Shown here in pieces: positions 1,097-43,228 of a DNA stretch of 64,000 bases; position 1 is the stretch's first letter, and each line of letters opens with the position of its first letter. The position numbers and the translations under genes are program-made. The DNA is taken from IMG/VR virus record IMGVR_UViG_3300007734_000747. One strand, written 5' to 3'. The stretch is from an uncultured virus (IMG/VR IMGVR_UViG_3300007734_000747) (Duplodnaviria; Heunggongvirae; Uroviricota; Caudoviricetes). Below the pieces are notes generated by a model. The model saw nothing but the letters and a program-made list of their open reading frames with translations, did no database searches and was not told the origin of the DNA.

Positions 1097-1414
1097 ATGC
1101 CACGGCCTTACAGTACGAAGTTTTTGAGTAGATTAGACGAAGTAGTAAATGACCACTATCGCGTTGGACTTAGGTTGGCAAAGTTTTGTGTAAGAGCAAA
1201 TCTTCCAGCTAAGTACGTAGCCGCTGCATTAGAAGTTTCACGGGCTACGATTCACAATTGGTTTAGGGGCGCTATTCTACGAGGCAAAAACGAAGATATG
1301 GCTTTGGCGTTTATCAACTTGGTAGAAAAAGATTTAGCGGACGGAGTATTGCCCGCTAAGTCTATAAAAGATGCCAAAGCCTACATAGAAGACATGATAG
1401 GTAAGCAGATTTAA
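1097..1414 (+). CDS. HTH (Xre/Cro-like) DNA-binding protein
   Basis: AKYVAAALEVSRATIHNWFRG is a typical helix-turn-helix pattern. Confidence 0.75.
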   Translation: MPRPYSTKFLSRLDEVVNDHYRVGLRLAKFCVRANLPAKYVAAALEVSRATIHNWFRGAILRGKNEDMALAFINLVEKDLADGVLPAKSIKDAKAYIEDMIGKQI

Positions 1415-1654
1415 CGGGGAAAAGCGGATGCTGTGAACTCTGAACCGAGTGCGGATGCACGGCGCTCAACTCACAGAAGTAGCGAGTACCCCACCCTACG
1501 GGGGAAAAGCGGATGCTATCGTGCGACTCATTGCCACTAACAGTGTGTATTGCAGGTAGACGTAGCGAGTACCCCACCCTACGGGGGAAAATGGTTCTAG
1601 ATATGGTGAAGCGGAGATACTTTGTTTTGTCCAGCGCCATGAGTACCCCACCCA
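1415..1654 (+). repeat. Tandem array of three ~83-nt structured units (candidate ncRNA array)
   Basis: Identical 30-mer GTAGCGAGTACCCCACCCTACGGGGGAAAA at 1479-1508 and 1562-1591; half-copies at 1415 (CGGGGAAAAGCGGATGCT) and 1641 (GAGTACCCCACCC); interiors differ and are self-complementary. Confidence 0.85.
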
Positions 1655-1661
1655 TTAACAC

Positions 1662-1687
1662 AAGGCAGGAGAAATCCTGCCTTTCTT
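1662..1687 (+). terminator. Hairpin/likely intrinsic terminator after the array
   Basis: AAGGCAGGA-GAAA-TCCTGCCTT followed by TCTT. Confidence 0.6.
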
Positions 1688-1699
1688 GTCTCTGCGGAT

Positions 1700-4558
1700 A
1701 TGATAAAACAATTTTACGAGAAAGCATTGCCTTCGCAGGGCGTTTACTGTGTAACTAAAATAGATGGCAGAGTTATACAGAAATTTGCGGAGTCTATAGA
1801 AGATGTCGAAACTATTGCAAGCATGTTTAGAATGGAAGAAGCAAATGTCTACGTCGCACTTGCTTCCTTCGATGGTTATAGCCGCAAGGCAGAGGACGCG
1901 CAATTCTTACGTTCATTCTTCGTTGATCTTGACGTTGGGGCGGGGAAAGCAGCTCTCGGAAGAGGATACGATAGTAAAGGGGATGCTCTCGTTTCATTAC
2001 ACGCTTTCATCCCAAGAGTTGGCCTACCTTCCCCCGTTATCATCGATTCCGGTACAGGCATACACGCCTATTGGTTATTTGATCGGGACATCCCCGTTGC
2101 AGAGTGGAAGCCTTACGCTGAGAAGTTCAAAGCGCTCTGCATTGGAAACGAGTTGTACATCGACCCTGTGGTTACTGCTGACGTTGCGCGAATCATGCGC
2201 TGTCCTGATACGTTCAACTATAAGACAACTCCGCCAACTAAATGTGAGGTTATATCGGACGAGCTGCCGGTATATTCGTTCGATGAGTTCAAAGAGTTCT
2301 TAGGCATAGTAGAAGAGTCGCCAGCAGAAATCTTAAAGAACCTGCCCAAAGGTTTGGACGACGACACTAAAGCATTGATGAAGCTGGACAATCAGGAGAC
2401 ACGTTTTGAAAAAATCGCTATCAGAAGTCTTGAAGGAGATGGATGCGGACAGATTAAGTGGGCTATTGAAAATGCTGCATCCTTACCTGAGCCAATGTGG
2501 ACAGCAGCACTTTCCATCGCTCAGCACTGCGTTGATCGAGATGACGCCATTCATAGGCTATCAGAAGATTATCCCAAGTATTCATTTTCAGATACGGAAC
2601 GCAAGGCAACATTACGCCAAGGAAAGCCATATTCTTGCATCACCTTCGACAACGAAAACCCCGGAATCTGCGACACCTGCGAGCATAGAGGAAAGATTAC
2701 CAACCCACTCGCTCTTGGACGAATTATCAAAATCGCGCAAGCTCCTAAAGAGGACGCAGTTCGGGAGCAAACGAATACCGAAGGTTTTTCAGCAAACGTA
2801 ATACCAGACCATCCACAGGCGTTATACCCATACTTCAGAGGTGAGTCAGGCGGTATCTATTATCAGCCGCCACCTAAGATAGACAAGAAAGGTAATAAGA
2901 AAGAGCAAGACCCACAGCTTATCTATCCGCATGAGTTGTTTCCTATTCGCAGGATGTTTAGTAAGGCTGATGGTGAGATATTAATGATGCGTCTTCTGTT
3001 GCCTAAAGATGCGCCGCGCGATTTCATGGTGACTACTAGGAGTTTGAATGCGTCTGACGAGTTTAAGAAAGCTATTGGGTTTATGGGCGTTACAGGTAAC
3101 GCAGATAAATTGGTGCATATCATGGGGTATATCATGAAGTGGGGGCACTACTTACAGACACAGGCAGAAGCTGAGTTAATGCAGATGCAGATGGGCTGGA
3201 CAGAAGTAATAGGCGACGAGCGGCTGGGCCGAGAGTATGTCATAGGCAATCATTTAATTAGATCAAACGGATCGATTGTGTCCACGCCTGCTTCACCTAT
3301 GGTTAAGAGTGTATCGAAACATTTTGAGCCGAAAGGAACCTTTGAGCGTTGGCAGGAGTCTGCTCAACAGTTGAATCGCCCATCGATGGAGATGCACGCG
3401 TTTGGTACGTTAATTGGTTTGGGTTCACCGCTTATGCCGTTGACGTCTACGCCGGGCGCTATCGTTAGTTATACAGGTAAATCAGGCAACGGTAAGACAG
3501 GGGCGCTGTATGCTAACTTAAGTATTTGGTGTAATCCGGTTGGTATCTCAGTGTTCGATGCGACAAACAATGGTTTGAATCAGCGGTACGTCACATTGAA
3601 GAACGCAGCGTTCGGGGTTGATGAAGCGCATACCCGCAAGATAGAAGAGTTAAGCAAGATGGTTCACGCTATCTCTCAGGGTAAAGCCAAGATCAGGATG
3701 CAGGGATCCATTAACGCTGAGCGAGAGCATGAACTCTTAGCGTCGTCCATTGCCATGATGACTTGTAACATGCCGCTACTGGATATGATTATGTCCAACA
3801 ACTCTATGGCTACAGGCGAGATGGCACGTATGATTGAGTTTCTTGTAATGAAACCACGGCTGTTGGTTGAAGAACCAGACTTTGGCCCGAAAGTGTTCGA
3901 TGCGTTCAAGTATAACTACGGTCATGCAGGACGCAAACTTATTCCAGCTTACTTCTCAACAGGTGAAGCGGCACTGACGGACATAGTGAAAGAGTGGATT
4001 GAACGATTTAAGAAAGACTTTGGCAACGACGCGATCTACCGTTTTTACGAGAACATTATTGGTGCGGCTATGGCAGGTGGCGTGATAGGGAATGAGTTTG
4101 GCATTATTGATTATGACTTGAACCGTATCTACGAGAAGGTGTGCGGGGAGATGATTAACATACGCGACAAGGTAGTTACCCTTGGCGAGACAGATCACTC
4201 AGCGTTGGTTGGTGACTTCATCAATAAATACTACACAGGCTTTCTGGGTATCAACGACGGCAAAGTTACTATGGAGCCACGCACTAGCCTTGTAGGGCGA
4301 ATAGACTTAGCGACAGGGTTAGTAACTATATCTACCACTGAGTTTAAAAAGTATCTGACGGATAAGAATGTTAGCTCACGAGAGTTTGAACAAAACATGA
4401 AAGAGAGAAATATTCTTATTGAAGTTAAGAAGTCCCGCCTTGACGCAGGATGGAAGCAAGCGTTGAGTATCCTTGATAAAAATATGAATGTGAACACTTA
4501 TGTCTTTGCCACCGAAATCCCCGATACCTTCTTCAGCGGAGATGGAGAAACTGACTGA
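1700..4558 (+). CDS. DNA primase-helicase (AEP-type primase N-terminus; DUF927-like P-loop C-terminus)
   Basis: FFVDLDVG and DSGTGIHAYW primase motifs, Cys/His cluster, Walker A GKSGNGKT, Walker B FGVDEA; 952 aa. Confidence 0.85.
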   Translation: MIKQFYEKALPSQGVYCVTKIDGRVIQKFAESIEDVETIASMFRMEEANVYVALASFDGYSRKAEDAQFLRSFFVDLDVGAGKAALGRGYDSKGDALVSLHAFIPRVGLPSPVIIDSGTGIHAYWLFDRDIPVAEWKPYAEKFKALCIGNELYIDPVVTADVARIMRCPDTFNYKTTPPTKCEVISDELPVYSFDEFKEFLGIVEESPAEILKNLPKGLDDDTKALMKLDNQETRFEKIAIRSLEGDGCGQIKWAIENAASLPEPMWTAALSIAQHCVDRDDAIHRLSEDYPKYSFSDTERKATLRQGKPYSCITFDNENPGICDTCEHRGKITNPLALGRIIKIAQAPKEDAVREQTNTEGFSANVIPDHPQALYPYFRGESGGIYYQPPPKIDKKGNKKEQDPQLIYPHELFPIRRMFSKADGEILMMRLLLPKDAPRDFMVTTRSLNASDEFKKAIGFMGVTGNADKLVHIMGYIMKWGHYLQTQAEAELMQMQMGWTEVIGDERLGREYVIGNHLIRSNGSIVSTPASPMVKSVSKHFEPKGTFERWQESAQQLNRPSMEMHAFGTLIGLGSPLMPLTSTPGAIVSYTGKSGNGKTGALYANLSIWCNPVGISVFDATNNGLNQRYVTLKNAAFGVDEAHTRKIEELSKMVHAISQGKAKIRMQGSINAEREHELLASSIAMMTCNMPLLDMIMSNNSMATGEMARMIEFLVMKPRLLVEEPDFGPKVFDAFKYNYGHAGRKLIPAYFSTGEAALTDIVKEWIERFKKDFGNDAIYRFYENIIGAAMAGGVIGNEFGIIDYDLNRIYEKVCGEMINIRDKVVTLGETDHSALVGDFINKYYTGFLGINDGKVTMEPRTSLVGRIDLATGLVTISTTEFKKYLTDKNVSSREFEQNMKERNILIEVKKSRLDAGWKQALSILDKNMNVNTYVFATEIPDTFFSGDGETD

Positions 4559-4745
4559 AGAGCCAGAGTGGATTTTTCCGTATGACTATATGGCGGTTGG
4601 GGAGAGCTTCTTTATCCCCACACTGCGCCCTGCCCAAATGATGTACGCAGCAGACATTGCCGCTAAGAAGGCACGCGTTAGGGTAAAGATATACACCTGT
4701 GATAAGGAAGGACACCTAGGCATCCGAGTGTGGCGGACTGCCTAG
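4542..4745 (+). CDS. Small hypothetical protein (possible DNA-binding)
   Basis: Probable ATG at 4542 overlapping the primase end; FPYDYMAVGESFFIP...GIRVWRTA pattern seen in small phage proteins. Confidence 0.6.
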   Translation: MEKLTEEPEWIFPYDYMAVGESFFIPTLRPAQMMYAADIAAKKARVRVKIYTCDKEGHLGIRVWRTA

Positions 4746-7700
4746 GGTTTGACTCCATACACTTTGTATAAATTTACTAAGCGCGCTTTCTCAAAGTTTT
4801 CTTGAAGCACAGCGTTTTTAACTAAAGCAGTTCTGGTTTTAATGCCTAGCCCTTGCATTGTTCGGTACATATTAGCTTCAGCACGTAAGTCTTTTAAGTG
4901 CCCGTTAACATCACCGTTATACATTTCAGCTAACATTTCATTAAGCGGGTGTTTAGCAATATATTTATCGTACTGCTCTGGGTCACTTGCTTTAAACATT
5001 TTAATGGTTGCATCCCGTTTCTTTAAATCCTCTTCTATCTTAGACCACTGACGAGCATCAAAGTTAGAGCGCGTTCCAAAGAAACTATCTAAGAACATAG
5101 TATCCGTATGGGCATTAAAATCTTTTTTACCAGACAACCACAGACCTATGCTTATTGGGCTGTTGACTAAGTTAGATGCACCGTCCAAATAGTTGTTAAA
5201 GAAAAAATACAACGTGTTAGGGCTAATATTTAAATCACCATTTGTTGTTTTAACTAGCCAACGCGACGCAAACTTAAAGCTTTCAGGAATATTATCTCCA
5301 CCAGTATAGGCATCTCCATAACGTGTTTGGCGGTTGTTGTATATCTGATGACCCAACGCATCGACATTCATAGCGTATTCTATTGGAGGTCTAGTAATAG
5401 AAGGAAACACAGAATCAATAGCAAACTCTAATGGTTTATCTATCGGACTTATACGTGATATTGGCAATGGCAAGAAAGAATCCATGACAATTGCCCTTAT
5501 ATTGTCTAAATATTCCGCTGTGCTTGTTGGATTTTTAGAGTCCGTCATAGCCGCCAACTGCGCGCCAATTGCTGAAAATGCTCCAAGACCGTAGCCCCAA
5601 GGCATTTGAAATGGAGTATCTAAGCCGGGTATATGGAATCGAGCAAACTTTGTCCACCGAGCCATATCATCTGTTGACACCCTATCGCGCCCTAACTCAT
5701 CATTATCAGAGCCAGCCTTTGCCATTAAATATGTAATAAAACCAGCGCCTATCAATGCGCCCATAACAATGCGTGAACTTGTTTGAATTTGTCCGTAGTT
5801 CTCATCAAACGTAGCCAAAGCTTTTTCCATTACAGCAAGTTCTTCTTTAAGTTTCTTTTCTTCTGTGTCAGTAACACCTTTGCTAAGCTTTTCTTTAATG
5901 ATGGCAGCGCGCGCAAACTCTGGTAAAGACAGCTTAACTTGTGCTTTATTTCTAAAGGCAGGAGCCACAGCATCCATAGCGCGTACAGCGCCTGTTGCTG
6001 ACGGGCGGAAGAACATAAACAAACCGCCTAGCACTTTACCCCACTCACCTACTTGTTCAAAGTTAGCAAGATTTTTGGCGTAAGCAGAAGCGGTAACGGT
6101 TGCAGCGTTTTCAATTTCTTTTTTAGTCTTCCCGCCTTTTTTGGAAAGCACAGCTATTTCATTTGATTTAGCAATACGGAACGCAGACACCCTCGATGCC
6201 ATCTCAAACGTATCTATCCAAACGTCAAAAAATCTATCTATATTTTCTTTGGTAAGTATCTTACCGCTAGGTAGTTTTGATAATTCTTGCATCTGCCCTT
6301 TAGCAGCAATACCTTGAATGTAAGACACTTTACCGCCGGTCTTTACATAGTCCATCAAATCTTTGTAGTAATCATCAGTCTTAGCAAGTTGCTCAATTAC
6401 TTTAGTATTGCCTTGACTATACAGCGCGCTAAAGCGCCATGACTTAAACATGTTTCCGTTTATAACATTAAATGCAACAGCGCCTAAATACCGGAACGAT
6501 TGAAGAGGCCCCAAGAAACCTTTGCCTTCTGCACCGATTGTCCAAGCGTTGGTTAATACGTCACGCACAAAGTTAACAGCAGCAAACTTCAAGTTGTATC
6601 GGGTGTGCATCTGCCCAACGCGCCCAGTATATAAATTGGCTTTGTTTACTACCCAATCAGCCAATGGGTTAGTATCCCTGTATGTACGACGTATTGCTTC
6701 GCGTTGCGCCCTGTCATTAATTTGAATGACCGCAACTTTGCCATCAGGCATGTAGTGGAAAATCTTAGTGTTACCCTTTAGTTCTTCAAGTAACTTCTCG
6801 TTAGCGCGGTCTTCAAAGTTAACTACTTGTACAACTCTACCATCTAACGTAAGGTCATTAACCGCGTTGTATATCGATTGCGTTACGTCTTTACGCCCAG
6901 CCCGCATAGAAGCTTTAGCCCCGTCTGCCATAAGTTGGAGGAGAGGGTTCTCAGGCACGGTCGCACGACCTTCAAAGGTGTGTATATCTTCTTGCAGCTC
7001 GCCACCTAATTTACGGCTGTCGGTATTAAATATATCTGCCTTGTCTTCATTAAAGTTTTTACCTTTAAACGGCACATAGTTATTAAACCCATAGAACATG
7101 ATGTAGTTCTTGGCGTAAGCGGACATGTAGTTTGCCATCTCGTTAAGCTCGATAACCGCATCATTAACGGCTTTTAACTTATCAAGAACTTTATCCGCAG
7201 CAGCTTTATGTTTGTTGTATTCAGCGGTTGCCGCTTTAATTTGGTCAGGAGAATAACCAGCAACATTATATTTTTGACTGTTTCTATCTAAGTACGGTTG
7301 GTCTTTCTCTTCCTTACTGAGATTATTCTTGTCGTTGACAATAGCATTGAGCTGATCCCGGAGGTACTTAGCGCCAGACAAGTCTAATTTATGTTTATTT
7401 AGATACGCATAGATTTCGTTACGCGCAGCAAACGGAGACACCTTATCACCATTAGAGTCAGTTAATATAGGGCTAATAGACAGCGGCACTTCACGTAAGT
7501 ACAACACCTCGCGGCGTTCATCTTCATGGCGGGCAATAGCAAACAAGCCAAGTTCTTTAAGCGCGGTATCAATATCTAAATCACGTTCTTTGGCGTACTT
7601 AACAATCTCTTTACGCACCGCTTCGTTGTGTTCCTGCACGTACTGTGAATACATCCAATGCGCGTTGCCAGACGATAAAGTAATTTGATCGTAAATATTA

Positions 7701-10700
7701 TTGAAGCCAGTTGAGTAAGAAACTAAACGCCCTGTCAACCACAACCTACGTTGCCAATTTTTAATAGCGGCGCGGTCATTCTGGAATATACGTACAGCAC
7801 CTTCCGCAATTTTACTTTTGCTAAACGATTTAACAGTATCACTAACACTAAAGTTAGGGCTAGGCACTGAATCACGCAATGCTTTAAAGCTTGTATCGCC
7901 ACCAGCGGGCGCAGGGATAGGTGGCTTAGTGGACTTAGCCATGTAGGACACGCCTACAGCGGGGGCAGTACGTTCAATCTTAATAATCTGTTCAATCTGG
8001 GTCAGTACATCCCCAAGCACGCTACCATACACGCCGCCAGCTTCTTCTCGTTCTTCACGGGTAAGCATACGGTTACGGAAGCCAAGCATCTCCATAACGC
8101 GTTTGGCAAACAGAGAGAATACGTTTTGTTTCTTGCCCTCTGTCTCCATAGGAGGCAGATTACCCATAGCTGTTTGAAACTCTGGATTAGAAAACGCTTG
8201 AGCTATAAACTCTTTAAGAGTACCAACATCAAACTTTTTACCTAGTTGAGAGTTAACGTATTTTTGTAAACGATCTAGCTGATTGACCGCCGCTTGCTGT
8301 TCTTTAGTTAGGTTGCCACGGTTGTCAACAATGTGGTCTGTCATGTAATGAGTAAGTTCATGCAGCACCACAACATCTAAGCGGTCTTTACCTAGATTGT
8401 CTAAATCAATCGTAATAGTTTCAGTTGATGGGTCATACTTGCCCGAGTGTCCGTCTTCTACTTTGCCTATAACAATATTAGGACGCGCGCCTTTACCGCC
8501 AGACAAGCGGTCTATAAGCTTTTCTCTTTCCGCTTCGTATTCTTTTATTACGGTTTTAGCGGCTTTCTCTGCTTTAACTAAATCTTCTGGTACATCTTCA
8601 TCTGGGTTTGTATACCTATACTTCTCAGCGGCAGCTACACTCTTACGAGCGGCTTCGTAATCTTTGTTGTTAGTTTTTGCCCACTCCGCTAATTTCTTTT
8701 CTATAGAACTCTTAGTTTTGGATACATCAAAAGTTTTAAATACGTCATAAATTTTTCTAGCAAACATCGCCGTGATCGAGTCATTAACTCTTTCATTGGC
8801 AATAGCGGCAAACACTTCATCAATATCCCCGCTTTCCAGTGCTTTACGAACATTGGCGTCGCGTTTCTGCTCAAGTGTTTCTATTTGAGTCGGGCCGGTT
8901 TTTTCTTTAGTAGGCGTGACTTTGCGCGCTGGCTTCTCAGCTTCGGTAACTAATTTTTCAACTTTATCTTTTGATCTTTCTTCACGGCTCTTACGTTTAT
9001 CCGCCCCAGTAGTAGTTCTACCAACATTCTTAGCGCCACGTATTTCTTTGTGAAATAGTTCTTCAGTTTTTTTATCAATAGCCTTTTGTTGCTCTTTTGA
9101 TAGACTTTTAATAAATCTACCCCGCACCCCAGCTTGTTTACGACGCTCTTGGTTAAGTCTAGTTTCATCAACATTATCGTCAAATAATTTTATTAGCTCA
9201 GCTTCCGGCATCTTTTGCAAAACGTCAAGCGTTGTAGCTTTTTCAGGTTTATCTACTTCTTCACCTCTAGCTACAGCTTCATCGTAAGCTTTTTTCCGCG
9301 CTTCGTTTTCTTGCTCTACCAATGGTTTAACATTTTCTGCAACCTTTGGATATGCCGCGTCATATAAATCAAAAGCTGTTTCAGAAACAGCGTAATCAAT
9401 ACCTTCTGCAATAGACTCAGCGGGTTTAGCGCGAGTCTTAGTCTTCATCTGTAAGAACGCGGTTTGTTCAGGCGTGTGCTGTTCTACCGGAGCGGCCTTA
9501 TCTTCTTCAAGCTTGATGGTGCGTCTTTCCGGCTCCACAATTTTTGTAGCAGGCGGCGGCTTTACTGGCTTGTTTTTCTTGCCTACGCTTTCCGCTTTTG
9601 TTAACTCCGCTTCTTCTGCTAATTGAGCTTCTAATGCTAAACGCAGCGATTCTTCTAAATGCTCTTCTTCTGGTGTTAATGCAGCAAGCTGTGTTCCTTC
9701 TGCCACATTATCTGTTGTAGCATCCCCTCCAGTATCGACCATTCCAGATACGTTAGATGTATTAACTCCGGTGGGGGTTCCTTCCATTGCTGGTGCAGAG
9801 CCAACAGTGCCAAGCTTATTTGCTGCTGCGTTAATTGTTGCAGGTGGCTGGACATTTTCTTCCCCCTTTCCTAGCTCTTGTTGCGTTAAATAATTTGCCT
9901 TCCATTGGTCTTTAGCGCGGCGCTGCTTAGTTCTCTCTATGCCAGACGCCTTTGGGTCAACAGTAGGAATGCCTAGTTCAGCCTGTACAGTTTTAAGGTA
10001 CGCCTTTTGTTCTTCCTTAGTATCAAGCCCCATCTCTATGAGTTGAGGTTCTAATTCTTTACGTACCTTTTCTGTGCTGACGTCATTAGCAGCGTAGGCT
10101 GCGGCAACATTCTCTTTAGTTAGAGCAGCAGGGGTAGGAGTTGTTACTTGTTGTTCCGCAACAGGGGCAGGAGTTGTTACTTGTTGCTCCGCAATAGGTG
10201 CGGGGGTTGTTACTTGTTGTTCAGGCGGTCTACCTACAGCGCCAGCTTGTAGGTAAGTAGGTAATTCTATTTTGCCTTGCGCATCAGGCACGGCGGTTTG
10301 TTCTATTTTGGCGGCTTCTTCTTTAGCTTTAATAGTGGCTTGTTCAGCCGCGTATTCTTTAGCCATTACTTGGTCTTGCGCTTTCATCTTTTGATAAGCG
10401 TGACCCGGCACACCGATAGTGCCGCCTAACACCGCACCGCCTATAAAGTTCTCAAAGTATTCTCGTCTAGCATCTTCATTGGTGATATTAAGCCCAGCTT
10501 GAGCGCGTTCCAATACCGCTTGCGCAGATTCTGTAAGACCCTCTGTACCAGACGTTTTAGCTACTTGTTTAATGATTGATTGCTTAGCAACCTCTTCTAT
10601 TTCCCGTTCACCTAATCTAAAACCAGCTTTACCAAGGATATTGCCAAGCCCCGGCATCATTTTTAAACTTAAAGTATCTAAAGCGGCTTGCGGAATAGAA

Positions 10701-11263
10701 GCGGCAACAGCGTTTAAGACGTTAAGGTCTTTGGCTTTTGTGCCTTCTTCTAATTGACGTGAAAGGTTTGTGGCAGAGAACTGTCCAGCGTTAGCAAGGA
10801 AAGCAGCGCCCGTAGCGGCAACAGTTGTACCAAGCGCACCAAGACCCAAAGCGGGAGCAGCAAGCATAGCGGCACCGCCAGCTACAGCAGGGGCTACTAC
10901 ATAAGGAATAGACTGACCAGCCAGACCGGTTACATAATCAACAGGGTGTTCAAGAAACTCGGGCTGCTTATAAATAGCTTTAGATTTTTCTCTACGCTCT
11001 TTAGCTTTTTGTTCAGCGCCTTCTACCCCCGCAGCAGCTTCAACAGCATACCTAGCCGCTTGTACGTTCTCTGCCGCACTTCTCAAGCCAGCAAAAAACC
11101 CTGTCTCCGGTTCAGGTTTACGTTCTTCAGGCGCGCGCGTTTCAGATTCTTGCGATCTTAATTTAGCTTGAATGGCGGCTACAATCTGACTTTTACTAGC
11201 ACCTTCAGGGCCATCAATCTGGTACAAATTACCATCTGGCCCTTGAATTTCATAAGTAACCAT
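4742..11263 (-). CDS. Very large internal virion/ejection (polyvalent) protein with zincin HExxH domain and LPD38-like C-terminus
   Basis: 2173 aa; VVLHELTH followed by LKEFIAQAF; Ala/Gly-rich hydrophobic N-terminal helices; last gene of the virion operon. Confidence 0.75.
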   Translation of the reverse strand: MVTYEIQGPDGNLYQIDGPEGASKSQIVAAIQAKLRSQESETRAPEERKPEPETGFFAGLRSAAENVQAARYAVEAAAGVEGAEQKAKERREKSKAIYKQPEFLEHPVDYVTGLAGQSIPYVVAPAVAGGAAMLAAPALGLGALGTTVAATGAAFLANAGQFSATNLSRQLEEGTKAKDLNVLNAVAASIPQAALDTLSLKMMPGLGNILGKAGFRLGEREIEEVAKQSIIKQVAKTSGTEGLTESAQAVLERAQAGLNITNEDARREYFENFIGGAVLGGTIGVPGHAYQKMKAQDQVMAKEYAAEQATIKAKEEAAKIEQTAVPDAQGKIELPTYLQAGAVGRPPEQQVTTPAPIAEQQVTTPAPVAEQQVTTPTPAALTKENVAAAYAANDVSTEKVRKELEPQLIEMGLDTKEEQKAYLKTVQAELGIPTVDPKASGIERTKQRRAKDQWKANYLTQQELGKGEENVQPPATINAAANKLGTVGSAPAMEGTPTGVNTSNVSGMVDTGGDATTDNVAEGTQLAALTPEEEHLEESLRLALEAQLAEEAELTKAESVGKKNKPVKPPPATKIVEPERRTIKLEEDKAAPVEQHTPEQTAFLQMKTKTRAKPAESIAEGIDYAVSETAFDLYDAAYPKVAENVKPLVEQENEARKKAYDEAVARGEEVDKPEKATTLDVLQKMPEAELIKLFDDNVDETRLNQERRKQAGVRGRFIKSLSKEQQKAIDKKTEELFHKEIRGAKNVGRTTTGADKRKSREERSKDKVEKLVTEAEKPARKVTPTKEKTGPTQIETLEQKRDANVRKALESGDIDEVFAAIANERVNDSITAMFARKIYDVFKTFDVSKTKSSIEKKLAEWAKTNNKDYEAARKSVAAAEKYRYTNPDEDVPEDLVKAEKAAKTVIKEYEAEREKLIDRLSGGKGARPNIVIGKVEDGHSGKYDPSTETITIDLDNLGKDRLDVVVLHELTHYMTDHIVDNRGNLTKEQQAAVNQLDRLQKYVNSQLGKKFDVGTLKEFIAQAFSNPEFQTAMGNLPPMETEGKKQNVFSLFAKRVMEMLGFRNRMLTREEREEAGGVYGSVLGDVLTQIEQIIKIERTAPAVGVSYMAKSTKPPIPAPAGGDTSFKALRDSVPSPNFSVSDTVKSFSKSKIAEGAVRIFQNDRAAIKNWQRRLWLTGRLVSYSTGFNNIYDQITLSSGNAHWMYSQYVQEHNEAVRKEIVKYAKERDLDIDTALKELGLFAIARHEDERREVLYLREVPLSISPILTDSNGDKVSPFAARNEIYAYLNKHKLDLSGAKYLRDQLNAIVNDKNNLSKEEKDQPYLDRNSQKYNVAGYSPDQIKAATAEYNKHKAAADKVLDKLKAVNDAVIELNEMANYMSAYAKNYIMFYGFNNYVPFKGKNFNEDKADIFNTDSRKLGGELQEDIHTFEGRATVPENPLLQLMADGAKASMRAGRKDVTQSIYNAVNDLTLDGRVVQVVNFEDRANEKLLEELKGNTKIFHYMPDGKVAVIQINDRAQREAIRRTYRDTNPLADWVVNKANLYTGRVGQMHTRYNLKFAAVNFVRDVLTNAWTIGAEGKGFLGPLQSFRYLGAVAFNVINGNMFKSWRFSALYSQGNTKVIEQLAKTDDYYKDLMDYVKTGGKVSYIQGIAAKGQMQELSKLPSGKILTKENIDRFFDVWIDTFEMASRVSAFRIAKSNEIAVLSKKGGKTKKEIENAATVTASAYAKNLANFEQVGEWGKVLGGLFMFFRPSATGAVRAMDAVAPAFRNKAQVKLSLPEFARAAIIKEKLSKGVTDTEEKKLKEELAVMEKALATFDENYGQIQTSSRIVMGALIGAGFITYLMAKAGSDNDELGRDRVSTDDMARWTKFARFHIPGLDTPFQMPWGYGLGAFSAIGAQLAAMTDSKNPTSTAEYLDNIRAIVMDSFLPLPISRISPIDKPLEFAIDSVFPSITRPPIEYAMNVDALGHQIYNNRQTRYGDAYTGGDNIPESFKFASRWLVKTTNGDLNISPNTLYFFFNNYLDGASNLVNSPISIGLWLSGKKDFNAHTDTMFLDSFFGTRSNFDARQWSKIEEDLKKRDATIKMFKASDPEQYDKYIAKHPLNEMLAEMYNGDVNGHLKDLRAEANMYRTMQGLGIKTRTALVKNAVLQENFEKARLVNLYKVYGVKP
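10127..10222 (-). repeat. 33-bp coding tandem repeat x3 (EQQVTTPAPxA)
   Basis: GTTGTTACTTGTTG recurs three times at 33-bp spacing within the 2173-aa gene. Confidence 0.85.
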
Positions 11264-21003: not shown

Positions 21004-21611
21004 TACTCTTCTCCTAAATGTAAGCCAGTCAGACTTTCATCTGACCCTATGTAACCTTTAACAAAGGTATTAAACGAAATACTGATACGAGTTCCATCGC
21101 CCTGCTTAGTTTGAACCATGTGCGTCAAGTTTGATGGGAAGATAATTAAGTCACCTGCACCAACATCAAACCACCAGCTTTCACTATTCCAATGGTTCCA
21201 GTTTTCTGTTGGAATCTTGATGCGCTCGTAACCATCTTTGTAGAAATAAATCCTGTCTGTTTCTTTGTTCGCCTGCGGGTAGAACACGCCAGAAATAATG
21301 CTGTTAGGGTGAGCATGCTTGTGATGATACTGACCCGGCTCTGTGTAGTTAGACCACGACTGCGTTATGTACGGTGTTACGTCATGCTTGGGCGCGTGTA
21401 CTGACTTGAAATACTCCAGCATCGCGTCTTCTATAAACTCACGTATCTCTGTTAGCTCTACAGACTTCAGCAGCTTTCTATTCTCGCTAGTGGTATTACC
21501 CTCATTGGGATAACGTACCTGACCAATAATAAAATCCAGCTCTTGCTGGGTAAGGTCACGGTCTAGCTTAGAAAAACCTACCGCTGTAGGAAACAAATTT
21601 GTTATGTTCAT
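21003..21611 (-). CDS. 2OG-Fe(II) oxygenase (TIGR02466-like)
   Basis: HKHAHPNSIISGVFY, LIIFPSNLTHMV and RISISFN motifs; start at 21611 gives an ATGA overlap. Confidence 0.85.
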   Translation of the reverse strand: MNITNLFPTAVGFSKLDRDLTQQELDFIIGQVRYPNEGNTTSENRKLLKSVELTEIREFIEDAMLEYFKSVHAPKHDVTPYITQSWSNYTEPGQYHHKHAHPNSIISGVFYPQANKETDRIYFYKDGYERIKIPTENWNHWNSESWWFDVGAGDLIIFPSNLTHMVQTKQGDGTRISISFNTFVKGYIGSDESLTGLHLGEE

Positions 21612-21862
21612 GCAACCGCCTTGTCGTATATTTCTTGTTGACCGCGCATCTGTTCTATTTGCTCTTGAGTCCACACCGTATTAATGCTGTCCTCAAACTC
21701 TTTTATCTTTTCCATTGTATCCAGCACTTCTTCCATAGTCGGACACGGGCGTGGGTCTTCCCACCGTGTAAACATAGTGTTGCTGATCTCCCACTTAGCG
21801 CCCGGACGGAGCAAGTGCATAGCTGTGTCAATACCGTAGAGTTGATATAGTTTCGTGTCCAT
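21608..21862 (-). CDS. Small tail-fibre-associated protein
   Basis: 84 aa directly after the fibre genes; LRPGAKW..W.D.RPCPT pattern. Confidence 0.55.
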   Translation of the reverse strand: MDTKLYQLYGIDTAMHLLRPGAKWEISNTMFTRWEDPRPCPTMEEVLDTMEKIKEFEDSINTVWTQEQIEQMRGQQEIYDKAVA

Positions 21863-21866
21863 GTGT

Positions 21867-23549
21867 TTAGTAATTTAGTTTAAGAATAACTACGCCTGAA
21901 CCACCAGCAAATGATGTGTTTGCACTTCCAGCAATTCCACCGCCACCGCCTCCGGTGTTAGCCGTTCCAGCAGTTCCTGTTCCCGTTGCTCCACCAGCAC
22001 CGTTTCCGTTTCCACCACCACCAGAACCACCAGAACCAGCCGTGCCTGAATAAAATGCGCCTCCGCCTCCACCGCCAGCATACATTACTGATGTACCAGT
22101 AATTGCAGATGAAAACCCAGCACCACCATTACCAGATACAGTTCCAGTAGCACCAGTATCAGATGCTCCACCACCACCGCCACCCCTAATTTGTGTTGTG
22201 CCATTAGCTAATGATGCACCACCACCATTTCCTTGACTTGGTGAAGTAGCAGGAGTATTTCCAGCACCACCAGCATAAGAAGTGTTTGAAACTTCCCCAC
22301 CACCACCACCAGAACCGCCACTACCTCCGATAACGGGAGCAGAACCACCGCCACCACCACCACCGCCGTTAGATGTAATTGTATAAAAAGTAGAATTACC
22401 TCCAGTTCCACCTATTGCATTTGTAGATGCAGACCCAGCAGCACCCACAGTAATAGTTGATGTATTACCTGAAGTTACAGCAAAAGCAGTTCCTGTTCTA
22501 AATCCACCTGCGCCACCGCCACCGCCTGTACCATTACCTCCGCCGCCACCACCGCCACCAGCAACAACAAGATAATCCACGCTAGTAACACCAGCAGGTA
22601 TCGTATATGACTGTGTAGAGTTAAAGGTAACAGAGCTAATAACTGGGGCTACGTATCTGATGATGACTATGCCGCTGCCGCCTGCGCCGCCCAAACGACT
22701 AGCACCAGTACCGCCACCACCACCACCACCACCTGTGTTTACAGTAGCACTTGAACCATCTGCGCTGCTTCCACCAGCCGCACCACCGCCAGAACCTCCT
22801 GCACCTCCGGGACTACCACTAACAGCACCACCACCGCCACCGCCGGCATAAGTAACAGAAGGCCCTGATACAGTAGAAGCTGTTCCAGCACCGCCAGCAC
22901 CTCCTGCACTACCTGAGCCATCAGCACCAACAGCAGATGCGCCGCCGCCGCCTCCACCACCAGCAGCAGGGCTACCATTACTACCAGTGCCGCCATTACT
23001 TCCTTGAGATGGCGTAGTGCTTGGAGTATTACCGTTTCCAAAATTTGCATTTATTGGACTACCACCGCCGCCACCACCGCCGCCAGAACCGCCGGAAGCA
23101 GCTATATTTCCATTGTTGTCGTAACCGCCACCACCGCCACCCGATGACAGTATGGAACTAAAAGAAGAAAGTGAACCAGATGGCGCAGTTGCACTAGCAG
23201 TACCGCCTGCAGCACCTGCCCCAACAGCAATAGCATAAGTAGTTCCGGGAACAACAGTAAATGCAGTTCCAGTTCTAAAACCACCTGCTCCTCCGCCACC
23301 ACCCAAACCACCACCTTTACCACCACCGCCGCCACCCGCCACCACCAGATAATCCACTTGCGTAACACCAGCAGGTGCAGTCCAGTAGCCAGAAGCAGTA
23401 AAGCTGGTAGAAACAGTCGAGCCAATACCGGGCCACACGCCTGAACGAATAGCTTGCAGCGCCTGTTGCAGCGTCCAGATACCTGACGCTTGCGTGGTAG
23501 ATATTGTTACCGGATTCTTTGTGATGATCCGACCGGGATAATTACTCAT
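21867..23549 (-). CDS. Glycine-rich tail fibre/receptor-binding protein 2
   Basis: Two modules VDYLVVAGGGGGG...GGAGGFRTG...GGSG(I/V)VI; polyglycine tracts. Confidence 0.75.
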   Translation of the reverse strand: MSNYPGRIITKNPVTISTTQASGIWTLQQALQAIRSGVWPGIGSTVSTSFTASGYWTAPAGVTQVDYLVVAGGGGGGKGGGLGGGGGAGGFRTGTAFTVVPGTTYAIAVGAGAAGGTASATAPSGSLSSFSSILSSGGGGGGYDNNGNIAASGGSGGGGGGGGSPINANFGNGNTPSTTPSQGSNGGTGSNGSPAAGGGGGGGASAVGADGSGSAGGAGGAGTASTVSGPSVTYAGGGGGGAVSGSPGGAGGSGGGAAGGSSADGSSATVNTGGGGGGGGTGASRLGGAGGSGIVIIRYVAPVISSVTFNSTQSYTIPAGVTSVDYLVVAGGGGGGGGNGTGGGGGAGGFRTGTAFAVTSGNTSTITVGAAGSASTNAIGGTGGNSTFYTITSNGGGGGGGGSAPVIGGSGGSGGGGGEVSNTSYAGGAGNTPATSPSQGNGGGASLANGTTQIRGGGGGGASDTGATGTVSGNGGAGFSSAITGTSVMYAGGGGGGAFYSGTAGSGGSGGGGNGNGAGGATGTGTAGTANTGGGGGGIAGSANTSFAGGSGVVILKLNY

Positions 23550-23557
23550 CGTTCACC

Positions 23558-25243
23558 TTACGAATATAGTCTAAGAATAACAATACCTGAACCGCCATCG
23601 CCGCCAGCATTGTATGGAGACCCAGAGCTACCTGAACCGCCACCGCCGCCTCCAGTATTTGCTGTACCCGCATTTCCAGTACCGCCGCCTCCGGTTTTGC
23701 CAGCAGCTCCTCCTCCTGTGCCCCCCGGAGCAAATCCTGAATCGGATGACCCGCCTGCTCCGCCAGCATAAATTATAGAAGAGCCAGTAATAGCCGATGC
23801 TTGCCCATTGCCTCCATTGCCGCCAACACCAGCAGCACCACCAGCAGTGCCAGAAACACCAGCTCCGCCTCCGCCGCCGGACATATTAGAACCACCTGCA
23901 CCGCCGTTATTTCCTTGCGATGGACTTGTACTAGGTGTATTACCAGAGCCAGCATTGCCTCCAGAATAAGACTCCCCGCCGCCGCCTCCAGAACCGCCGC
24001 TATTAGCAGTTGCTACACTGCGACCAGCACCGCCGCCACCACCGTTAGAAGTAATTGTGCTAAATGTTGAATTGCCGCCATTACTGCCAGAAACTTCAGA
24101 ACCACCAGCAGCTCCACCAGCTCCACCAGCTCCTACTGTAATTGTGTATGCACTACCGCCAGTAACAGCTAATCCAGTGCCAGTTCTAAATCCACCAGCA
24201 CCACCGCCACCACCACGATTAACCCCACCACCTCCACCGCCAGCAACTACCAAGTAGTCAGCATAAGCAACATTAGTCGGCATTGTGTAAGTAGTAGTGC
24301 TGTTAAACGTCACAACAGTAACGCCGGGCTGTTGGTATCTAAGGATGACTATGCCTGACCCGCCTGCACCGCCTGCGTTTGGTGTTCGATTAGTAGCACC
24401 GCCACCGCCGCCAGTATTTGCTCCACCTGCTCCACCTTGGTCTGCACTAGGACTAAGCGTTCCATTGCCACCCGGAGCAAGTGCGCTACCACCACCAACT
24501 GCAACAACGTCAGACACATTTGCCCCGCCGCCCCCCCCGCCCCCGCCAATTCCACCCGCGCCAGCACCACCCGGTGCAGTCCCTAGATAAATACTACCAC
24601 CACCACCACCAGAAAAATAATACCCCAATCCAATAATAGAACTACTTAACCCAGCACCACCGGCTCCAGCAAAAGGAGAAATGTAATTAAGTCCAATGTT
24701 GCCTGCGCCGCCGCCGCCACTTCCGTTAGATGAAAGTGCTGCACCTCCGTTATTACCTTGTGATGATGGAGTTGTAGCTGGAGTATTACCCAATCCAGCA
24801 GCACCAGCAGCACCCCCGCCGCCGGAACCTCCATTAGTTGCCGCGCTTCCATTTGCACCAGAACCACCGCCACCACCATTGGAAGTAATAGTGCTAAATG
24901 TGGAATTGCCGCCGGTTCCACCAACTGCATTAGCGCCGCCTGTACCACCAGCACCAACAGTAATTGTGTACGAAGTTCCGGGGATAACAGCCAAACCTGA
25001 GCCTGTACGGAATCCACCTCCGCCACCGCCACCAGCGTTATGACCGCCGCCAGCCCCGCCGCCAGCTACAACCAGATACTCTACAGACGTAACACCTTGA
25101 GGGCATACCCATGTAGATGTCGCATTAAATATCTGCACGACAGAGGAGTAGCCTCTAAGCGTAGAAAGCGTCCAGATGCCTGAACCAAACGGTATAGGCG
25201 CGTTGGCACTTATTATCTGACCGGGATAACCATGAATTGCCAT
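23558..25243 (-). CDS. Glycine-rich tail fibre/receptor-binding protein 1
   Basis: Paralog of the neighbouring gene; same N-terminal YPG.II...SGIWTL and two Gly-rich modules. Confidence 0.75.
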   Translation of the reverse strand: MAIHGYPGQIISANAPIPFGSGIWTLSTLRGYSSVVQIFNATSTWVCPQGVTSVEYLVVAGGGAGGGHNAGGGGGGGFRTGSGLAVIPGTSYTITVGAGGTGGANAVGGTGGNSTFSTITSNGGGGGSGANGSAATNGGSGGGGAAGAAGLGNTPATTPSSQGNNGGAALSSNGSGGGGAGNIGLNYISPFAGAGGAGLSSSIIGLGYYFSGGGGGSIYLGTAPGGAGAGGIGGGGGGGGANVSDVVAVGGGSALAPGGNGTLSPSADQGGAGGANTGGGGGATNRTPNAGGAGGSGIVILRYQQPGVTVVTFNSTTTYTMPTNVAYADYLVVAGGGGGGVNRGGGGGAGGFRTGTGLAVTGGSAYTITVGAGGAGGAAGGSEVSGSNGGNSTFSTITSNGGGGGAGRSVATANSGGSGGGGGESYSGGNAGSGNTPSTSPSQGNNGGAGGSNMSGGGGGAGVSGTAGGAAGVGGNGGNGQASAITGSSIIYAGGAGGSSDSGFAPGGTGGGAAGKTGGGGTGNAGTANTGGGGGGSGSSGSPYNAGGDGGSGIVILRLYS

Positions 25244-38828: not shown

Positions 38829-39218
38829 CTATGCTCGTGAAATACCGCGTGGGTCTTGAACGACCGCCTCGACAGAATCATCATTAATAAGACGGAATTC
38901 CCGCCCATGAATCTTCAAACGAGTACCGCTGTTCGGGCGCGCGAGGACAAAATCCCCTTCTTTACACCACGGGCCTGACGTAAACCTGTCGCCTTTATAA
39001 GCTTCAGGGCCTATTTTCACGACAAAAAAGACCGTGCTAAGAACCTCTTCGTAGTGCATTGTTGAGCCAGCTTTCGCTAAGCCACTGTCATACGTGTCGT
39101 CAATTTCAGGTATGGCTACTAATATGTGATAGCCCGAAGGTTCTGGCAGTTGTTTTGCCTTATCTTCTGCGTCCTGCGGAACTTCACCGCTTTCTGTAGC
39201 GATTACTATGTCAGTCAT
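38829..39218 (-). CDS. groES: Co-chaperonin GroES (Cpn10)-like protein
   Basis: PSGYHILV..VVKIGP..KEGDFV..GTRLKIHGREFRLINDDSVEAVV. Confidence 0.85.
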   Translation of the reverse strand: MTDIVIATESGEVPQDAEDKAKQLPEPSGYHILVAIPEIDDTYDSGLAKAGSTMHYEEVLSTVFFVVKIGPEAYKGDRFTSGPWCKEGDFVLARPNSGTRLKIHGREFRLINDDSVEAVVQDPRGISRA

Positions 39219-42682: not shown

Positions 42683-43228
42683 TTATTCCTCATAGTATTT
42701 ATATGCCCAGCACACGGCGGTGTATCTAACTCCGCTTGTTACCGGTGTTACACGGTGTTCGGCTTTTGCATCGAACACAACTATGTCCCCCTTATTTTTA
42801 AGGAGGTTGTCGCTCTTGTCTTTAATCTGTAGCAGCCCGCCCTCAAACTCTGAGGGGTCGTTCAATAGCATCACGAGTGACACTGCTCTAACCATGCCGT
42901 TTTGTGGGGGTAGCACGTCGTTGTGCCACATGTAGTGCCCGCCCTCGCCGTATCTAATTACTTGAACCACGTCGAAGTTACATATAGAGCCTGTCCACTG
43001 CCCCTTCACATTGCCGTCTACTAAGTAGTTCTTACACACTGAACCTAACGGTGACATCAAGTCTTCCGACACAATACTTGCCCTGCGTAATACCTTAGTT
43101 ACTTCCGCGCCTGTGTCTTTATATATTGTGGCGTCCTTCGCCACAGACCAATCAATAGAGCCTTTGACGTAGTTACAAAACTCACGCGGCATCGCCTTCT
43201 CGTAGTACATGCAGGTAAGGTTGCTCAT
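42683..43228 (-). CDS. 2OG-Fe(II) oxygenase (prolyl-hydroxylase/PKHD-type)
   Basis: YGEGGHYMWHND, EFEGGLL and HRVTPVTSGVRYTAVCW motifs. Confidence 0.88.
   Translation of the reverse strand: MSNLTCMYYEKAMPREFCNYVKGSIDWSVAKDATIYKDTGAEVTKVLRRASIVSEDLMSPLGSVCKNYLVDGNVKGQWTGSICNFDVVQVIRYGEGGHYMWHNDVLPPQNGMVRAVSLVMLLNDPSEFEGGLLQIKDKSDNLLKNKGDIVVFDAKAEHRVTPVTSGVRYTAVCWAYKYYEE

Follow-up and report, generated by a model that had tools for sequence, protein, structure and literature searches.

What are the three short units that lie in tandem between an HTH gene and a primase/helicase gene in the phage genome analysed here, and why do their interiors differ while their ends are constant? The window, that is, the whole stretch of 64,000 nucleotides analysed, represents a phage genome of about 64 kb, in which the + strand carries the replication genes and the - strand those for the virion. 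The first-pass annotation had placed the units directly after the HTH stop codon, and this was borne out by coordinates, spacings, a shared 11-mer and a covariance model. The features of the locus are as follows.

252-1088, + strand: gene of 278 aa matching PHROG 27714 (function not assigned by PHROG)
1097-1414, + strand: HTH gene of 105 aa, with its stop codon (1412-1414) 1 nt ahead of unit 1
1416-1495, + strand: unit 1, full scaffold (type A), from folds and covariance model
1500-1578, + strand: unit 2, full scaffold (type A), from folds and covariance model
1583-1652, + strand: unit 3, reduced scaffold (type B), with end stem, loop E and ACC only
1662-1693, + strand: intrinsic-terminator-like hairpin (1662-1683) and tail, from the fold of 1655-1700 (z = -3.08)
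1700-4558, + strand: primase/helicase gene of 952 aa (DUF927; PHROG primase-helicase matches), the downstream neighbour

The 5' G-runs of the units begin at 1416, 1500 and 1583 (spacings of 83 and 74 nt), and GAGTACCCCACC is found at 1484-1495, 1567-1578 and 1641-1652. The shared 11-mer, searched with at most one mismatch, occurred three times in the window, each time exactly, against 0.64 expected, a count reached in 5 of 100 shuffles. Units 1 and 2 have a common 34-nt junction (97% identity), and a covariance model built on 65 relatives matched these three units only in the window at E < 0.01. In unit 1, the end stem (1416-1419 paired with 1489-1492) is followed by a loop-E-type internal loop, a GC-GGA-UGC module, the interior and an ACC tail, while unit 3 is without the inner GC-GGA-UGC module. 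The helices first named by eye were present in MFE or centroid folds, and the terminator-like hairpin noticed after the array was recovered as well, a hairpin being retained at this position in most relatives whether units are present or absent. Compared with shuffles, single units were only modestly stable (z = -0.87, -1.43 and -1.60), so that it is covariation among relatives which makes the case for structure. ARAGORN found no tRNA or tmRNA gene in the window, and the primase/helicase gene is no part of the RNA element. The 278-aa gene, whose Atlas neighbours were only viral hypothetical proteins and for which no relative of solved structure was found, is a putative ssDNA-binding gene of this phage group.

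Across the family, units were about 60-125 nt long (median 71), with a constant part made of a covarying end stem of 4-5 bp, a loop-E-type internal loop and a 3' ACC tail. In type A, the 5' half runs end stem, GAAA, GC, GGA bulge, UGC, covarying helix and interior, and the 3' half runs helix, G(AC or U)GCA, GC, GAGUA, end stem and ACC; in type B, to which unit 3 belongs, the end stem, internal loop and tail are retained and the rest is absent. The end stem was fully paired in 149 of 158 distinct units, with many stem types, these units coming from scans that left the stem wholly or partly free. In a 65-row alignment, 34 cells were changed on both sides of the stem compared to 6.5 in shuffles (reached in 0 of 500), a control that may be inflated by relatedness, the change itself recurring in many stem types; slid-pairing controls scored far lower. 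The first pair of the inner helix was formed in 120 of 120 units by four pair types, and G-U pairs were tolerated in the covarying helices. Applied to 1.3 Mb, the helix rule retrieved 150 distinct units on the sense strand and 0 on the opposite strand. The selection on structure that had been suspected from three units is thus visible as end-stem and inner-helix covariation among relatives, and the covarying stems, the G-U pairs and the ACC tail together indicate selection acting on an RNA fold.

The inner module of the scaffold is nearly invariant. When its usual first base was forbidden, scans returned six loci, none with a compensating change, although this invariance is partly imposed by the search patterns. 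The pairing of GAA opposite AGUA, which we take to be the loop-E/sarcin-ricin consensus, had been pointed out in the first-pass annotation; the two strands do sit between covarying helices in both types, partly fixed by the search patterns, and the GNRA-capped form of ribosomal loop E is absent from the units. At the 3' end, a purine-C-C lay at most 9 nt past the core in 100 of 114 units, in a search whose pattern left the tail free there. ACC followed the stem immediately in 67 of 112 units, the first base was G in 82 of 112, the stem measured 4-5 bp in 99 of 112, and the leader 5' of the units was U/A-rich. The features of 4.5S-like hairpin substrates of RNase P (paired ends, a purine-C-C tail and mostly G at +1) were all found here, and the stem with its ACC tail, earlier described as acceptor-like, would fit such a substrate, as would the U/A-rich leader. 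Against this reading, the end stem has 4-5 canonical pairs and is shorter than an acceptor plus T stem.

IMG/VR yielded at least 120 viral stretches that match the pattern of two constant arms, and metagenomes likewise at least 120. In GTDB, 12 of 57 pattern matches were true units as judged by their helices, and the other 45, in which the family helices are absent, were chance matches and were used as a chance control. The true matches included three named Cupriavidus isolates, in phage-like regions and in one case directly after a RecT gene, as well as MAG contigs under the labels Polaromonas, Fluviibacter and others; these may be phage contigs that were binned wrongly. In the family of that Cupriavidus, two of 151 genomes searched with the model carried units. 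On account of these GTDB matches and of the search in the Cupriavidus family, betaproteobacterial hosts are likely for part of the unit family.

The units had not been recognised as a named family, and Rfam agrees: no match was obtained at gathering score in the window and 20 loci, and by E-value only chance-level matches were seen (window, 20 loci and 11 loci). BLAST against cultured phages likewise gave only chance-level matches (E of 3-10). A match in JSF7 consisted of the junction only and was not a unit, and the phi80 M3 RNA, annotated as an oop homolog, is unrelated, the family model finding nothing in phi80. No description of the family was found by full-text literature searches on core sequences and descriptive terms. 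A 2023 structured-RNA screen of IMG/VR, which according to excerpts lists roughly 8,500 candidate models from DNA viruses, may contain it, four of its six text-type supplements holding no match (PMC10690425). Overall, the unit family is real, large and uncatalogued in Rfam.

A single unit was carried by 207 of 211 loci. Arrays of two to four units numbered 18, one of which (L078) was false, its second unit being coding sequence. The multi-unit cassette proposed for the window therefore holds for its three units and for such arrays but is an exception in the family, while the anticipated variation in unit number among relatives, from none to 2-4, was found. Neighbouring units in arrays often differ in their end stem, and a tandem scan for two identical G/C stems returned none, with a pattern that would miss the window's own extra-A variant. 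RNA-library contigs of relatives span the slot; as assembled contigs, they do not allow transcription, ends or level to be read.

The main feature of the family, exchange of interiors between unrelated phages, is invisible from the window alone. The type A interiors comprised 260 distinct sequences in 121 single-linkage clusters, some of which are chained, with some contigs fetched twice. Several interior clusters were present in 37 of the 49 upstream-flank groups with at least two members, 40 of 47 recurring interior clusters were shared by two or more flank groups, and of 33 flank pairs that were near-identical, 14 differed in their interior. One weakly folded 27-nt interior was letter-identical in 17 fetched loci of six flank groups, and an RNA-library contig has it in the window's own slot. 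The closest relative of the window (L121; HTH 95% identical) carries an interior unrelated to the window's. The interior family of unit 1 recurs in at least five other flank contexts (L066, L344, L599, L631 and L635), and the interior of unit 2 is akin to those of L035 and L087, with looser kinship to L001 and L016. Units 1 and 3 also occur as a pair in a relative (L123) and behind a different upstream gene (L599), and the same payloads were found on both type A and type B bases. Interiors have thus been swapped between unrelated phage lineages, for which recombination through the constant arms would be the simplest route.

Units sit directly 3' of stop codons, often just ahead of the next ribosome-binding site, and a position directly after SSB/recombination genes is preferred, RecT, ERF and SSB genes being frequent neighbours. 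Upstream ORFs ended on the same strand at most 14 nt before the unit in 43 of 75 cases, and 39 of the 75 had an acidic, aromatic C-terminal tail. Among the 75 upstream proteins scanned, 24 belonged to PHROG ssDNA-binding families, two were RecT and nine matched PHROG 27714, a gene of this last family lying directly upstream of the unit in nine loci besides the window. Downstream, units precede many unrelated genes, with a primase gene adjoining in the window and L231. No partner protein was common to most loci, the commonest family being found in 25 of 87, and no transposase or other dedicated gene was found among the neighbours. Inspection by eye of 80 orthologous HTH slots showed eight with type A units, four with type B only, nine with a small cysteine-rich ORF, three with a stem-closed insert, 53 with short hairpins only, two without a gap and one cut off. 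In many unit-free relatives the short hairpin is of the GGGG-GAAA-CCCC type. Four of five complete relatives carried no unit anywhere in the genome, and the unit is therefore an accessory element, not an origin.

In 75% of clusters the interiors were more stable than shuffles, with a mean z of -0.65, and palindromic loops were depleted in them (29 versus 46.7). Within 24 interior clusters, unpaired positions were slightly less conserved than paired ones (0.88 versus 0.92; p = 0.03), which is not as expected of long guides. In some payloads, short unpaired motifs were fixed while the helices covaried, as in a cluster with fixed CACCAC and GAGA motifs in which four of five pairs were changed on both sides. 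The payloads showed no GGA enrichment, and so no Csr/Rsm decoy signature.

The proposal that the interiors are guides or antisense RNAs against the phage's own genes was not upheld. Complementarity was not in excess in the units' own loci (8.8 versus 8.7 nt; p = 0.77; 80 loci), in their own 150- and 600-nt flanks (110 units) or in their own start regions (80 units; p = 0.50), tests that do not reach seeds shorter than 7 nt. A 12-nt complement at an ATG in L304 was set aside, the frame closing after nine codons. Between payload clusters, 192 antisense and 209 sense pairs were counted at 7 nt, compared to 141-167 in shuffles, and none at 8 nt; this complementarity is weak and equalled by sense similarity, and was rejected. 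For the rRNA, tRNA, SRP, RNase P and tmRNA of Cupriavidus and a relative, no overall excess of complementarity was seen; the tRNA set came from 30 of 63 loci and comprised only 27 distinct members. The complements of two payloads occurred in host genomes at background (15 of 151; 20 of 301, none exact). These searches thus covered the phages, stable host RNAs and, for two motifs, host genomes, without finding a target. In a panel of 89 tmRNAs, with the locus L524 left out, the clusters with a conserved match numbered 22 versus 21.6 at 9 nt and 6 versus 5.7 at 10 nt; at 11 nt there were four, compared to 1.5 expected (maximum 4).

Two observations concern particular payloads. A GGACGAAC-type bulge, present in three clusters as well as in one type B unit, is complementary to a conserved Burkholderiaceae tmRNA segment (L252, L345, L364, L574, L118, L335 and L007), which we take to be the last pseudoknot loop. 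The best members carry a 12-nt complement of a segment retained in 21 of 89 betaproteobacterial tmRNAs, and one payload variant corresponds to the variant of three other tmRNAs; the cluster also resembles, in sense, another tmRNA segment. Found post hoc, in a panel without overall excess and in units other than those of the window, this possible pairing with tmRNA is a weak lead that comes from sequence complementarity. T-loop-like hairpins were also seen in several payloads (L051, L064, L073, L084, L301 and L017), and may mimic the tRNA elbow.

We favour a reading, with a probability of about 0.55, in which the units are RNAs released by RNase P and acting in trans, and in which selection by hosts accounts for identical payloads having spread. 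Each unit would be a small RNA gene with two modules, a constant base and an interior payload. The base would act as an acceptor-like stem whose helix is extended by the loop-E-type loop and, because of this resemblance, host RNase P probably cuts the unit at its first base from the replication/SSB transcript. The base would also supply about 20 nt of common sequence on each side of the interior, and through such shared arms phage recombination could swap interiors between unrelated phages. The interior would be the working payload, folding by itself and exposing short unpaired motifs. Its most likely role during replication would be in trans, on host components: it would serve some host protein as ligand or decoy, or work through 6-8-nt seeds, and so blunt defence or retune the host. 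Since the pairing tests were negative, a protein ligand or decoy is somewhat more likely than antisense action. To our knowledge, characterised phage small RNAs are few, and only a handful of cases of RNA-based counter-defence are known.

A broader version, in which aquatic betaproteobacterial phages share one host-processed RNA scaffold with more than 100 swappable payloads, each a decoy or short antisense RNA against a different host defence or housekeeping component and sweeping through unrelated phage lineages as the scaffold arms recombine, is a tentative proposal that we consider possible without expecting it to hold; in such an RNA display, one payload subset may pair with the conserved tmRNA pseudoknot loop. 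As to the processing step, bacterial RNase P cleaves the hairpin substrates 4.5S RNA (with a 3' CCC end), M3, CI and C4, according to excerpts of PMC5499578. In the same excerpts, the 4.5S precursor and phi80 M3 appear, like the units, as rods whose closing stem is G-C and whose 3' tail is short and C-rich; the units differ in showing no sequence or model match to them and no excess similarity to SRP RNA.

The main rival, which we consider unlikely, is a processing or stabilising signal in cis with a largely neutral interior. The base would process, split or protect the SSB/replication message, and the interior would merely close the helix and drift by recombination, on the model of T7 RNase III sites or REP-like hairpins. 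The location of units immediately 3' of stop codons, in many cases with the next ribosome-binding site just behind, suits such a signal, as do the many relatives that hold only a short GGGG-GAAA-CCCC-type hairpin in the slot, payload loops that are no more conserved than stems, and the empty searches for trans targets. Drift, however, does not account for a weakly folded 27-nt interior that stays letter-identical across six flank groups, nor for unpaired CACCAC and GAGA motifs that stay fixed while four of five helix pairs change on both sides; and two to four different payloads before a terminator, such as the three different ones in tandem in the window, would be superfluous for a simple cut site. 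The early RNase III sites of T7 are intergenic RNA rods placed directly after stop codons in a polycistronic message. The units share this position, but their end stem is short and interrupted by a loop-E-type loop, their interiors are swappable and they end in an ACC tail.

An improbable alternative to release in trans is a recombination cassette or selfish insertion acting mainly at the DNA level, whose arms would promote exchange near recombinase genes and whose fold would keep the insert harmless. Rapid interior exchange, the frequent adjacency of RecT, ERF and SSB genes and the small protein gene that can replace the unit in the slot are all consistent with it. It is opposed by the lack of a transposase or dedicated gene among the neighbours, by the mostly single copy per locus, by a DNA fold no better than shuffles and by the covarying stems, G-U pairs and ACC tail, which indicate selection at the RNA level.

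The odds are poorer still for antisense repressors of the C4/CI type, directed at the phage's own downstream genes or conferring immunity against related phages. In excerpts of PMC5320573 and PMC5499578, C4 (P1/P7; RF01695) and P4 CI are described as phage RNAs that RNase P cuts to about 77 nt and in which the loops that set specificity vary on a constant base; the variable loop of the processed C4 RNA sets its target (PMC5320573, PMC8546580, in excerpts). The units are alike in size, in their constant base and variable loops, often with a hairpin plus bulge, and lie in prophage-like regions of Cupriavidus isolates; moreover, C4 targets use short loops, which the pairing tests could miss (PMC5320573, in excerpts). 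In contrast to C4 and CI, which target their own transcript, the units showed no excess complementarity in flanks, loci or start regions, and identical payloads travel between phages with different genes, so that this reading is disfavoured as far as self-targets are concerned. The C4 model itself gave no match to the units at E of 10 or less (window 1300-1800), 5 or less (20 loci) and 1 or less (11 loci). C4 is made of three stems, a tetraloop and the loops a' and anti-RBS b', of which it varies a loop of 7-11 nt, whereas the units combine an end stem and a loop-E-type loop with many interior folds and replace the whole apical domain (121 clusters). C4 lies in an antirepressor leader, whereas the units follow SSB/recombination genes, and the phages concerned often encode a DNA polymerase of their own. 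The unit family therefore resembles the RNase P-processed C4/CI RNAs in outline, with a processing that is itself inferred here, but is not a member. What sets it apart is that unrelated phages trade a payload comprising a whole domain.

That the adjoining primase-helicase reads the element as a replication origin or ssDNA signal is highly improbable: a primase gene does adjoin the unit in the window and L231, and STAXI repeats near SSB genes were once considered ssDNA structures (PMC2864571), but units are missing from four of five complete relatives and most of the 80 orthologous slots, precede many unrelated genes and, folded as DNA, behave like shuffles (z of -0.13 to 0.59), so that the DNA-level origin named at the outset as an alternative falls away. 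STAXI itself is structured, often in tandem and near SSB/DNA-handling genes of mobile elements, as the units are, but consists of a repeated pseudoknot (PMC2864571), whereas the units have no Rfam match, a covariation explained by nested helices, and variable payloads.

Equally remote is an array in the manner of CRISPR or TIGR, in which hairpin repeats would alternate with guides serving a phage nuclease, a reading suggested by the constant ends, the variable middles and window junctions able to pair across units; the repeat-spacer reading offered in the first-pass annotation was rejected because stems covary within each unit and only 7 of 22 junctions could cross-pair, and the single-unit state of most loci, the folded interiors without long matches in phage loci and the lack of an effector gene common to the loci point the same way. 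Solitary-repeat RNA anti-CRISPRs and pseudo-ToxI repeats are small accessory RNAs by which phages act on host defence and which differ from isolate to isolate. Their likeness to the units is a functional analogy only, as each of them mimics one host RNA family while the units present many unrelated payloads on one scaffold, without an Rfam match to a CRISPR repeat or antitoxin.

The family is common in aquatic phage sequences, and its scaffold with an exchangeable top amounts to a library of more than 100 natural payloads under visible selection. Its occurrence in cultured Cupriavidus strains makes processing and targets directly testable. Should the payloads be directed at the host, they would reveal new defence targets, and the scaffold could then be used for stable expression of short structured RNAs in bacteria.

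Further elements were observed around the units. A protein of 48-51 aa with a signal-peptide-like start and a cysteine-rich end occupies the same slot in 9 of 80 relatives (e.g. L125, 3312-3464), and lies at most 400 nt from a unit in 26 of 160 loci, some of them duplicated (e.g. L015, L016, L017, L019, L039 and L042); one member had no Pfam match, and Atlas neighbours were unnamed. A second recurring structured RNA-like family was seen directly 3' of the unit (L001, L005, L011, L025, L034, L039 and L092), with an AGUGGCG hairpin followed by a long stem often ending in GCACC, and without an Rfam match. A third recurring element 3' of the unit starts with ACGCAUG(G/A)GGA (L011, L024, L032, L059, L066 and L089) and closes with CCGUGUUGG in several loci, in phages that bear clusters of different small structured RNAs. 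In the HTH-primase gap of L166, L168 and L175, inserts closed by a G-C stem, with a CACC-like tail and no loop E, are possibly a sister class using the same end signal.

Elsewhere in the window, all on the - strand, a large polyvalent protein of 2173 aa (4742-11263) has an LPD38 domain and a weak metalloprotease match. Two 2OG-Fe(II) oxygenase genes and one GroES-like gene lie among the virion genes (21006-21674, 38832-39218 and 42686-43228), and two neighbouring paralogous genes of 560 aa (21870-25243) belong to PHROG 2295, with a weak tail-fibre assembly match.
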